Source: Escherichia coli
Lineage (GTDB): Bacteria > Pseudomonadota > Gammaproteobacteria > Enterobacterales > Enterobacteriaceae
Assembly: GCF_045037415.1 (NCBI RefSeq)
Contig: NZ_CP173438.1
Strand: one strand, 5' to 3'
Length of the DNA stretch: 64,000 nt
Under the pieces are notes generated by a model, which was given only the letters and a program-made list of their open reading frames with translations, searched no databases and was not told where the DNA came from. Numbering within the stretch: the stretch's first letter is position 1; the number at the start of each line of letters is the position of its first letter. Positions 2,114 through 3,208 of the stretch are shown piece after piece. A program made the translations under genes and the position numbers.

Positions 2114-3208
2114 CCTGAGCGATCACCTTTAATATGGCAGCACTTACACTGAATTATTTACATATTCGTTATAACGAACTTCTGTACATAATTATGAAAC
2201 AGATTTGTATTTACATAAAACATGGATGTTTTTTATTTAGGTTTATTACTATTATTATACTCACTCCCTTTTTCATACAATCTCTATTGTTATTTACTTC
2301 CTGTCTTCACTCACTCTCAATCTTTACACATTCCATTAGTATTACTCTTGTTATCGTATTCACTCCATCCTTCAATCATATTTACTTTAACTAATATGAT
2401 GTTCAGATAAGTTATTCTCTACTACGCTATTACTGATATCTATCTGTTTTCAGTCTTCACTGAAACAGTAATTAATTTTAATCTTATCCATCATGAGCTG
2501 TATTTTCTTAACAATGGTTGTTTATCTGAAGTGTTTTAACTATTCTGATGAACATCAATTCTTTTGTCATTACTGATTAACTGAATGTTTACTCTTTGAT
2601 AAGGTGTCTATGATTTCATCATGTTTAACAGTGCAGGATAAACAATGAAATTAACAGAGTGAATTCCTGATTATATTTGTTAGTTTCTGATTATCTTGTA
2701 TGTTAAACAAAATGAAAATTATCCATCCATGTTATATTTTATTCTGGTACCGTGTACCCGTTAACGCTAATGTTTTGAAGTGAGTTGTTTTTAACAGATT
2801 AAATGAGAGTGTATGATTTTATCAGGTTACAGATATGTGTTGGCCTTGTACACGTTTTTGCAGACTCACTGAGAGCAAGTTTGTAGTTTATGATGTGACT
2901 GGTCGTAATGCGTTTCTTAACCTCCAGCTAGTGGGTTTTTATCGCATATTTTGCAGTATTTCGTGATGTTTATTGATTCTGTATTTTATTCACTCCTCGT
3001 TTATCTCATCTCTTTAGCTAATACCATCAGATAATCCATTTATTTCTGCACAACGCTACGTGTCGTTAATAACCGACGTATCCATTCTGTTACAGCATGC
3101 CTGATAAATACCATCTGTAAGTTATTACCGTTTTAGATCTGATTATGAGCGAAAGCATTAATTCGCTTACAGAGCTTAAAACATCATTAACTTTCAGGAG
3201 TCATCAAC

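Follow-up and report, generated by a model that had tools for sequence, protein, structure and literature searches.

A gene-free AT-rich region 5' of a YagK-family gene in an Escherichia coli island: a candidate silenced control region

Introduction

In UPEC, operons gained by horizontal transfer are silenced along their long AT-rich leaders by filaments of H-NS and StpA together with Rho, and Hfp, a paralog encoded on an island, occupies the highest-affinity sites (PMC9765446). The region analysed here resembles the H-NS/StpA/Hfp-silenced hly, kps and rfa operons of UPEC CFT073: it lies in an island directly 5' of an operon, it is AT-rich (GC 0.32) and gene-free, and its length of about 1 kb falls inside the 0.2-20 kb range of H-NS filaments. 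As in those silenced leaders, an untranslated tract is rich in C and poor in G, as would suit Rho, and the island encodes an H-NS paralog close by. Unlike them, it has no RfaH ops site (even with 3 mismatches allowed, GGCGGTAGnnTG is absent from the non-template strand of 2114-3208) and no enrichment of the H-NS nucleation motif.

A second close precedent is the K-12 yagK promoter in CP4-6 (Shimada et al. 2014, PMC3946193). The yagL-yagK spacer bound RpoD holoenzyme in genomic SELEX and carries an HNS flag (PMC3946193); the promoter predicted in it is TTTAGA-16-TATAAT. This TATAAT, some 190 bp from the ATG, is surrounded by TAGGTATTATATAAT...TACTC, a context that resembles a short conserved element in our region. 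Both sites lie 5' of a YagK/YfjJ-family HUH gene, and both have a perfect or near-perfect -10 hexamer in the context TAGGT-(AT-rich)-TATAAT...(T/C)ACTC. The element in our sequence differs from the K-12 promoter in having no -35 match and in standing 973 bp from the ATG. The YagK proteins of the two loci are just 16-20% identical.

Two further kinds of system invite comparison. The HUH (Rep) origins of CRESS-DNA viruses, parvoviruses, RCR plasmids and Ff phage, where a nick motif inside or beside an inverted repeat adjoins the rep gene together with iterons, share with this locus an adjacent HUH+Tyr gene, here with a Rep-like predicted fold, and a short motif conserved far beyond the protein; some lineages also have a GC-rich inverted repeat around the AT-rich core, and an arm-like motif recurs downstream of the element. 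Unlike those origins, the inverted repeat is missing here and in several other lineages, and the 'loop', at 34 nt, far exceeds those of known origins. The loading sites that processive antiterminators such as P. aeruginosa AlpA (at its ABE) and lambda Q use within promoters, with terminators in the leader (PMC7969949, PMC9371919), are paralleled by an AlpA-family gene in the same module and by a conserved element that overlaps a -10-like hexamer and is followed by a long leader before the genes. The locus departs from AlpA/ABE in lacking a GGGACG-N5-GGTA motif and an intrinsic terminator in the leader (none in 2114-3400), and the element is also retained at low-GC loci without a neighbouring alpA.

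YagK and YfjJ are members of the E. coli 'y-ome', the genes of unknown function. The uncharacterised family to which they belong ('inovirus Gp2-type') is widespread and forms part of the core of genomic islands in enterobacteria, of cryptic prophages in K-12 and of phage satellites in Pseudomonas. In the tmRNA islands and satellites of Pseudomonas, Gp2-like genes count among the core genes (bioRxiv 10.1101/2024.08.29.610337). The region itself is ordinary, an AT-rich gene-free sequence upstream of acquired genes, of a kind known to be coated by H-NS. The new and testable detail is a 22-nt motif that accompanies YagK genes across very distant hosts. It offers nicking or binding assays a concrete candidate substrate and, together with the HUH gene, gives a handle on how islands and satellites of this large class might replicate or self-regulate after excision.

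Composition, recurrence and borders of the region

The window is a 64-kb stretch of E. coli DNA (64,000 nt of contig NZ_CP173438.1), and the region under study occupies its positions 2114-3208. The features referred to below are these:

518-958: H-NS family gene, 1.3 kb upstream of the region
1341-2113, - strand: IS21 fragment (N-terminal part of istA plus terminal repeat), from sequence, ORF and RefSeq annotation
2114-2162, + strand: IS256-family (ISEc39-like) transposase-gene fragment, 88-92% identical to annotated ISEc39/IS256 transposase genes
2236-2273, + strand: YagK-linked cis element, with the core TTTAGGTTTATTACTATTATTA at 2236-2257, CACTCC at 2262-2267 and then a T run
2260-2410, + strand: G-depleted pyrimidine tract (C 26%, G 5%, T 44%), indel-prone, in two haplotype families
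2411-3079, no strand assigned: AT-rich spacer with neutral divergence, deletions and IS insertions
3080-3208, + strand: constrained proximal leader, with the Shine-Dalgarno AGGAG at 3196-3200, a uORF at 3145-3216 and an RNA fold
3209-3775, + strand: YagK-family gene of 188 aa, a predicted HUH (Rep-like) single-tyrosine endonuclease
4666-4899: AlpA-family gene (Pfam PF05930, 40.8 bits)
5718-6062: ProQ/FinO family gene, from RefSeq annotation

The original prediction had described about 1.1 kb of strongly AT-rich DNA, and a windowed GC calculation agrees: GC is 0.317 in 2114-3208 vs 0.486 for the window, about the lowest of any 1.1-kb stretch (the 1095-bp minimum, 0.312, falls at 2128, and just 0.12% of positions have a GC as low as that of the region). 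TpA steps number 106 per kb vs 49 per kb in the window. The description of the region as homopolymer-poor was wrong, with 20 A/T runs of at least 4 vs 11.9 per kb in the window.

About 1,290 of 5,426 complete E. coli genomes carry a non-coding unit beginning at ~2205 (1,289 with at least 80% of the region), always directly 5' of the 188-aa YagK-family gene and with left flanks that are unrelated between genomes. The homology common to other islands begins at ~2205-2236. Under the homologous copies shown, RefSeq annotates nothing except IS transposase genes (one 'transposase', and the 49-bp matches at the left edge). Blastn found no homolog of the AT-rich sequence in the K-12 CP4-6 or CP4-57 regions examined, and a search of phages and viral contigs returned none. 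ARAGORN detected no tRNA or tmRNA in the region, and no tandem repeats were found there. Terminal inverted repeats that might have marked the spacer as a mobile insertion were rejected, both repeat pairs being unconserved in other copies. Partial copies on plasmids and chromosomes were likewise rejected as independent modules, as they are IS truncations.

The region had been placed between IS debris and the island gene block. An IS21 terminus does abut it, ending at 2113, so that the left coordinate 2114 is exactly one base beyond; the reverse complement of 2060-2113 reads TGTCAGCGCCAGCG..., a 224-aa ORF lies at 1341-2015 within the fragment, and for the identical strain 219, in which the region lies at NZ_CP020514.1 66,043-67,137, the RefSeq entry is 'IS21-like element IS21 family transposase, incomplete'. 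The debris does not stop at that border, however. Because 2114-2162, the first 49 positions, match ISEc39/IS256 transposase genes, it reaches into the region, and an N-terminal IS256 fragment lies across the IS21 piece at ~1226-1354. The first ~90 bp of the interval are IS debris.

The region is gene-free and shows no trace of a decayed gene

Neither strand holds a credible gene, as had been predicted. ORFs of at least 30 aa occur on the + strand only, at 2134-2394 (86 aa), 2222-2410 (62 aa) and 2835-2966 (43 aa), with none on the - strand of 2114-3208. The start of the 86-aa ORF falls in strain-specific IS debris. None of 10 other copies has the 62-, 43- or 35-aa ORF intact, and only ORFs within near-invariant blocks survive. 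Variable alignment columns show no 3-base periodicity upstream (flat counts), vs 8/8/37 by codon position in yagK. Pfam gave no match for the 86- and 62-aa ORFs, the two largest, and a comparison of the 86-aa ORF with 5.8 billion proteins returned just four partial matches, all of them E. coli gene-caller products. These results and the RefSeq annotation agree, and no conserved protein-coding gene was detected by homology search.

A decayed gene had also been proposed. Such a pseudogene could be suspected from the 197-aa gene that occupies the corresponding position 5' of YagK in islands of Citrobacter, Enterobacter, Salmonella and Mixta, and from the 43-49-aa ORF at 2835-2966 that gene callers sometimes predict. 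The 197-aa gene of these relatives sits 5' of the conserved element, however, and not between the element and YagK, and tblastn with its protein and those of its neighbours was negative over 2000-3300 (best E 0.84). Nor is a former gene indicated by codon periodicity, by a conserved ORF or by any Pfam or database family, and the GC of 0.29-0.37 is far under that of the neighbouring genes. On this sequence evidence we reject the decayed-gene reading, which would be very improbable.

A conserved element accompanies YagK genes

Near the left end of the shared homology lies a short element (2236-2273) that is conserved well beyond E. coli. It is 84% identical to sites 120-165 bp upstream of YagK genes whose proteins are ~52% identical, and anchored alignment recovered it in ~20 lineages. 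The 22-nt core is found 5' of YagK/YfjJ genes from E. coli to low-GC bacteria, with protein identity down to ~30%. In metagenome loci with the core, a YagK-like gene lies downstream on the same strand in 50 of 80 and elsewhere in none, and in all 50 it is within 1.2 kb of the core. The element is unique in the window at up to 3 mismatches (0 expected), occurs once per locus and is always on the + strand; no second copy that might mark a unit's other end was found. Among E. coli copies, the shared homology starts 5-40 nt upstream of the element. Its spacing from the start codon is bimodal, at 120-400 bp or 800-1100 bp.

Inside the core is the -10-like hexamer TATTAT (2250-2255), which is a perfect TATAAT in most lineages. 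No -35 hexamer occurs 16-18 bp away, there is no TG upstream as an extended -10 would have, and a consensus promoter scan of the + strand passed over the element both in the window and in the short-form loci L014, L035 and L036. Because the TATAAT arises at the junction of two tandem TAATTAATA units, its conservation could reflect protein binding rather than RNA polymerase.

In Enterobacter, Citrobacter and Mixta the core is flanked by an inverted repeat, GGGGAGTG/CACTCCC, and the Serratia arms, GGAGTA/TACTCT, represent a change on both arms. A hairpin over the element, of about -8 kcal/mol (z -1.4 to -2.2), is confined to the lineage of Enterobacter, Mixta and Citrobacter; neither inverted repeat nor hairpin occurs in the window, in E. 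coli L024, in Budvicia or in the low-GC group, and locus L016 has no hairpin either. We also considered CACTCC as an anti-Shine-Dalgarno sequence pairing with AGGAGT (3196-3201), and rejected this because short-form relatives keep CACTCC where there is no AGGAG Shine-Dalgarno.

The two ends are conserved and the interior drifts

A G-depleted pyrimidine tract overlaps the end of the element and extends to 2410. The most G-poor 150 nt of the window lie in this part of the sequence (G 3.3%, at 2242), with G-free runs of 47, 41 and 35 nt, and the C/G ratio is 3.6-11 in the tract of all E. coli copies. TCACTC occurs in it at 2261, 2307, 2311 and 2360 and a fifth time at 2990, giving five copies in 2200-3208 vs 0.37 expected. 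The tract sequence itself is variable (divergence 0.25 per site, with 37 gap columns per pair). It is also unstructured, with an alignment fold energy of ~0. Positions 2260-2410 thus have the makeup sought in a rut site: at least ~80 nt of C-rich, G-poor, unstructured, untranslated sequence with no conserved ORF. Budvicia has a long spacer that lacks the G-poor tract.

Divergence in the spacer is 0.136 per site over 2401-3000 vs 0.115 at 4-fold sites, and 0.075 over 3001-3100. Natural deletions remove 2535-2835, 2731-3079 and 2774-2796, and IS1, IS3 and IS66 have inserted into or truncated the spacers of other copies. A deletion map of 49 loci shows that the interior is dispensable piecewise, while both ends are kept nearly throughout. 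The RNA-structure signal is weak, a single + strand window at 2726-2843 (z -3.5), and some copies lack its stems; conserved interior structure was rejected, since sliding RNAalifold with column shuffles found nothing robust. As judged from these alignments, the spacer is under no sequence-level constraint, and the ~800 bp between the ends are drifting neutrally. Any role of 2411-3079 would therefore rest on composition and not on sequence, as the spacer is both neutral and deletion-tolerant. These ~800 bp are specific to this E. coli lineage, in which composition is kept: AT stays at 68-70%, and over the first 150 nt the coding strand is poor in G and rich in C. Ruling out a decayed gene and showing the neutral drift of ~800 bp settles the pseudogene question.

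The gene-proximal end behaves differently. Divergence over 3101-3208 falls to 0.020 per site, close to that of codon positions 1+2 (0.018) and vs 0.115 at 4-fold sites, and the leader is present in essentially all of the 49 loci. The predicted RNA structure pairs 3095-3099 with the start-codon region (3208-3212), and the fold of the proximal 166 nt has an energy of -34.6 kcal/mol (z -3.1 vs shuffles). A 23-codon uORF at 3145-3216 is intact in 10 of 10 copies, but the sequence is near-invariant and the uORF has no Shine-Dalgarno of its own. In the promoter prediction, promoter-like sites of the region are not above shuffles (4 vs 6.3), and the 400 bp nearest the gene gave no match to the sigma-70 consensus.

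A proposed silenced control region and its rivals

The conservation of the element across genera and the constraint on 3101-3208 (0.020 vs 0.115) support a regulatory region. The reading that we favour, and to which we give an even chance, is that 2205-3208 is an H-NS-type silenced, non-coding upstream control region or leader of the island's conserved core operon. That operon would comprise the YagK-type HUH nuclease, a hypothetical protein and the AlpA-like regulator. Control information would reside at the two ends. Transcription of the operon would start or be controlled at the distal element, with its -10-like hexamer, and the proximal ~130-bp leader would supply the ribosome-binding site and an RNA fold that may occlude the start codon. 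The spacer, by its composition, could form a binding platform for silencers of the H-NS family: host H-NS and StpA would bind, and the H-NS paralog encoded 1.3 kb upstream might do so too. Were transcription to start at the distal element, it would yield an untranslated, rut-like leader where Rho can terminate. By either the H-NS or the Rho route, the nuclease operon would stay off unless a counter-silencer acts. The analysis shows that the region is non-coding, how its conservation and composition are arranged and that the element is linked to YagK; from this we infer that H-NS or Rho occupies the DNA, that the element acts as a promoter and that the operon is regulated in this way.

The original prediction had suggested a regulatory or silencing region. 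The regulatory part stands on the conservation pattern. Silencing by H-NS is plausible from the composition (68% AT, TpA steps) and the precedent of the K-12 yagK paralog. The high-affinity nucleation motif, reported by Lang et al. in 2007 to be tCGATAAATT, is not enriched in the region, with 1 match at up to 2 mismatches vs 3.07 in composition-matched shuffles, and 215 of 315 window bins hold at least as many matches.

The explanations that compete with a silenced control region account for the element, the spacer or the predicted structures in other ways. One, possible but on the doubtful side, is that the element is the cognate nick site or origin of the YagK HUH endonuclease and perhaps its autoregulatory operator as well. 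After excision of the island, YagK would nick the element and initiate rolling-circle-type replication or transfer, and the AT-rich DNA would either flank the origin and melt easily or separate the origin from the rep gene. YagK, the predicted HUH endonuclease that the upstream region would serve, has invariant HxH (HUH) and YxxK (Tyr) motifs and a Rep-like predicted fold, which suits such a role. The core is almost unchanged 5' of family members with ~30% identity, also in low-GC hosts with no nearby alpA. Conservation so deep is typical of HUH nick motifs, as in CRESS and relaxase nick sites, and unusual for promoters. The strict position and orientation of the core, the inverted repeat around it in Enterobacter, Citrobacter and Mixta, the two-arm change in Serratia, the fivefold recurrence of the right-arm-like TCACTC and the place of Gp2-like genes in the core of Pseudomonas tmRNA islands and satellites all point the same way. 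Against an origin, the inverted repeat or hairpin is missing from the window, E. coli L024, Budvicia and the low-GC group, there is no second element for a unit's other end, and the 800-1000 bp between origin and gene in two lineages are left unexplained. We rejected the idea that the inverted repeat of the element resembles the (+) origin of Ff phage (GGAGTCCAC...TTTAATAGTGGACTC): similarity to the M13 origin is at chance (score 17, equalled by 34% of random M13 segments), M13 gpII belongs to Phage_CRI and G2P_X_C and not to PF23343, and YagK has no BLASTP match to gpII. If the reading nevertheless holds, which we think rather unlikely, the element, of 22-45 bp, would be a previously unrecognised nick or origin site of YagK/YfjJ HUH nucleases, the islands would carry a rolling-circle-type initiation module, and the AT-rich kilobase particular to E. 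coli would serve as a silencing spacer that separates this origin from its rep gene. Two genes farther downstream, hyp2 (4022-4597) and hyp3 (5151-5699), were considered as YagK paralogs and rejected (hhalign probability <1%).

An undescribed non-coding RNA, either a long leader RNA or an antisense sRNA and perhaps a partner of the island's ProQ/FinO-family protein (5718-6062), is improbable. The fold of the proximal 166 nt, the alignment window at 2726-2843 and three promoter-like sites on the - strand (2764, 2718 and 2570) could be read in its favour. A covariance search of window positions 1-8000 with Rfam 15 found nothing at E <= 1, however. Of 54 alignment windows just 3 have z < -3, and in two of these the value is an artefact of shuffles with zero energy; other copies do not preserve the candidate stems GGTAC/GTACC and 2614-2630/2701-2717, and the interior is neutral and deletable. 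It is unlikely, too, though less so, that everything except the proximal ~130-200 bp is functionless filler, acquired AT-rich DNA that has not been deleted, with an unrecognised promoter and a ribosome-binding site in the proximal part and the element a relic of a short ancestral arrangement. The spacer's neutral rate and its tolerance of piecewise deletion and IS insertion are equally compatible with filler and with a silenced leader. That 135-320 bp between element and gene suffice in most relatives, and that neither promoter-like nor H-NS motifs are enriched, also speaks for filler. On the other side, no consensus promoter was found in the proximal region, and shared homology starts at the element in at least 6 contexts, which would be unexpected of a relic. 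Of the 49 E. coli-type loci with both ends, ~97-98% keep the element, though it lies 900-1050 bp from the gene, and its distance from the ATG is 908-1053 bp in most copies despite many indels. The G-poor strand asymmetry, finally, is held across two haplotype families that differ by 35-40%.

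An AT-rich upstream region without credible genes

As an object the stretch is of an ordinary kind: non-coding, AT-rich DNA upstream of island genes. We divided it, with the gene that follows, into these parts:

2114-3208: AT-rich stretch
2236-2273 (+): distal element, 22-nt core at 2236-2257
2260-2410: G-depleted pyrimidine tract
2411-3079: spacer
3080-3208: proximal leader
3209-3775 (+): yagK, of the YagK/YfjJ family of predicted HUH (Rep-like) nucleases

GC content is 0.317 over 2114-3208 versus 0.486 across the 64-kb window. A windowed GC calculation placed the lowest 1.1-kb value, 0.312, at 2128, with just 0.12% of positions as low as 2114-3208, bearing out the claim of strong AT-richness: this is essentially the window's lowest-GC 1.1 kb. 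The description 'homopolymer-poor' does not hold, as A/T runs of at least 4 nt occur at 20 per kb in the stretch versus 12 per kb. The original prediction also placed the stretch between IS debris and island genes. Its left coordinate is exact: read as the reverse complement, 2060-2113 is an IS21 terminus (TGTCAGCGCC...), and the RefSeq annotation of an identical genome has a truncated IS21 istA there; however, debris reaches into the interval, because 2114-2162 matches IS256/ISEc39 transposase genes. A promoter-like site at 2108-2135 (+), CTGACA-16-TAATAT, points into the stretch, its -35 contributed by the IS21 terminal repeat and its -10 by the IS256 remnant; possibly this is a hybrid outward promoter peculiar to the strain.

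The only ORFs of at least 30 aa in 2114-3208 are of 86, 62 and 43 aa, all on the + strand; the - strand has none. In an alignment with seven other E. coli copies, variable columns fall 8/8/37 by codon position in the adjacent yagK, and the upstream bins are flat, with no codon periodicity. None of ten other copies has kept any of the ORFs of 62, 43 and 35 aa intact, a Pfam search of the 86- and 62-aa ORFs gave no match, and the 86-aa ORF has only four matches among 5.8 billion proteins, all partial and all from E. coli. RefSeq shows no features beneath the homologous copies displayed except IS transposases, and the stretch holds no Rfam family, tRNA, tmRNA or tandem repeat. The absence of credible genes is thus confirmed. 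In related islands of Citrobacter, Enterobacter, Salmonella and Mixta, YagK has a 197-aa gene just before it, of which tblastn finds no trace in the stretch. With that search negative, and without periodicity or a conserved ORF, we rejected the suggestion of a decayed gene.

Constraint lies at the two ends

At least 80% of the stretch is held by about 1,289 of 5,426 complete E. coli genomes, at 76-90% identity and in up to six copies per genome. The right flank is constant (YagK of 188 aa, a hypothetical protein of about 190 aa, an AlpA-like regulator), and the left varies (hypothetical gene, sugar kinase, dsdA, IS3, DUF3987 or IS debris). Shared homology begins 5-40 nt upstream of the distal element in at least six independent contexts. 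By sequence comparison, the stretch is a conserved unit.

Divergence per site, pooled over 28 pairs of copies
yagK, 4-fold degenerate sites: 0.115
yagK, codon positions 1+2: 0.018
2271-2400, pyrimidine tract: 0.250 (two haplotype families, many indels)
2401-3000, spacer: 0.136
3001-3100: 0.075
3101-3208: 0.020

Among 49 loci retaining both ends we found deletions of 2262-2341, 2317-2362, 2319-2439, 2535-2835, 2731-3079 and 2774-2796; the distal element and 3080-3208 were kept in essentially all. IS1, IS3 and IS66 have inserted into the stretch, and IS21/IS256 into this window's copy. On the evidence of its neutral divergence, deletions and IS landings, the interior has no function at the level of sequence; the two ends do. 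Two metagenomic loci of E. coli type (L050 and L102) have element-to-ATG distances of only 375 bp and 813 bp; the latter lacks 2319-2439.

A distal element tied to the YagK/YfjJ family

This otherwise ordinary region has one feature that is undescribed and testable, a cis element that accompanies the YagK/YfjJ HUH family. At 84%, positions 2232-2273 match DNA located 120-165 bp upstream of YagK genes that encode proteins of only about 52% identity. An anchored alignment of about 20 lineages (including two of E. coli, Enterobacter, Citrobacter, Salmonella, Mixta, Klebsiella, Serratia, Xenorhabdus, Budvicia and metagenomes) gave the consensus ...TTAA-TTTrGGTTaATTAA-TATAAT-TAAtagg-CACTCCC-TTTTT. 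Even with up to 3 mismatches allowed, the window contains the element only once (0 expected), and each locus has one, always in the orientation of YagK.

Scanning metagenomes with the 22-nt core gave 80 loci to analyse. A YagK-like gene is present in 50 of the 80, each time downstream, on the same strand and within 1.2 kb, although upstream sequence of equal length was available; of the other 30, 17 resemble chance AT-rich matches and 13 are too short for judgement. Core-to-ATG spacing is bimodal, 120-400 bp in 21 loci and 800-1100 bp in 28. The long form occurs in the window's E. coli lineage and in Budvicia, whose spacer is unrelated. Six loci from low-GC organisms (GC 0.23-0.31) have kept the core as well, 141-214 bp before genes for proteins about 30% identical, beside DUF932, Rad52 and DUF2958 genes and with no alpA nearby. 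One representative from each of the three contexts (L060, L092, L108) passed the YagK_YfjJ_C Pfam threshold. In this distant group, L060, L103 and L108 have TGTATAC palindromes (TTGTATACC ... TGTATACAT) on either side of the core, about 40 nt before it and 150 nt after it, which look in sequence like a pair of operator sites.

The YagK of the window, which scores under the Pfam cut-offs, is probably an active HUH endonuclease, since its HxH and YxxK motifs are invariant and its predicted fold is Rep-like. In the main rival reading, the element could be this protein's own nick or origin site, as its great depth of conservation, strict position, TCACTC repeats and lineage-specific inverted repeat (changed on both sides in Serratia) would suit; however, the window and several lineages show no hairpin there, and likeness to the M13 origin is at chance level. 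Rep promoters often overlap origins, so the promoter and nick/origin readings are not exclusive.

Pyrimidine tract and proximal leader

The pyrimidine tract, the first 150 nt of the interior, is the most G-poor such segment of the window (C 26%, G 5%), keeps this composition across haplotypes 35-40% different, and is unstructured. The proximal 166 nt, as predicted RNA, fold better than shuffles (z -3.1, -34.6 kcal/mol). In the predicted fold of 3095-3212 (+), GCAUG at 3095-3099 pairs with the start-codon region; a hairpin at about 3149-3172 lies enclosed between them. Other copies have one change, G-C to G-U, that agrees with this model. The fold would be compatible with translational control, but the sequence under it is near-invariant. 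An upstream ORF of 23 codons at 3145-3216 (+) (MSESINSLTELKTSLTFRSHQHA), whose stop overlaps the yagK start (ATGCCTAA), is intact in 10 of 10 copies, yet lies inside near-invariant sequence; it has no Shine-Dalgarno and is not present in short-form relatives.

The two intergenic regions that follow in the operon, 3776-4021 and 4900-5150 (+), are also pyrimidine-rich on the coding strand, with TTCACT and CACTCC(C)-like motifs (e.g. CACTCCC at about 4960) recalling 2260-2410. The window's most C-poor 150 nt, at about 57116-57270 (+) (C 4.7%, a C-free run of 55 nt), mirror the G-poor tract on the opposite strand, where a comparable leader, read from the - strand, may lie.

A candidate silenced control region

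The yagL-yagK spacer of the K-12 paralog binds RpoD holoenzyme, contains the predicted promoter TTTAGA-16-TATAAT and carries an HNS flag (PMC3946193). In UPEC, long AT-rich leaders are acted on by H-NS/StpA filaments and by Rho, and the strongest sites are those of the island paralog Hfp (PMC9765446). An island H-NS paralog of the Hfp kind (146 aa; Pfam Histone_HNS, 44.7 bits) is encoded at 518-958 (+), within an IS-riddled segment some 1.2 kb before the stretch. With support from these three observations we infer, as the most likely reading, a silenced upstream control region, in which H-NS-family proteins would coat the AT-rich kilobase and the untranslated C-rich leader would serve as a substrate for Rho if transcription begins at the distal element. 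The predicted 'regulatory or silencing region' is partly supported, the conserved ends being in its favour; against it, the H-NS nucleation motif is not enriched in the stretch, and the distal element lacks a -35 and goes unflagged in a consensus scan. The element's TATAAT is formed where two tandem TAATTAATA units meet. Neither an ops site nor a terminator was found in the stretch, and plain filler would account equally well for the neutrality and deletion tolerance of the interior.

In strain 219, the identical genome, a second unannotated gap (L001 5272-6769; 1.5 kb, GC 0.37), a little beyond the window's left edge, sits upstream of another 'inovirus Gp2 family' gene (243 aa); the distal-element pattern has no match in it. 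Directly downstream of the module, RefSeq annotation of the identical genome places a ProQ/FinO-family RNA-chaperone gene at 5718-6062 (-), and further on a MobI(A/C)-like conjugative transfer gene at about 13857-14243 (+). In IncA/C-type systems oriT adjoins mobI, so by analogy an oriT may lie near the latter.
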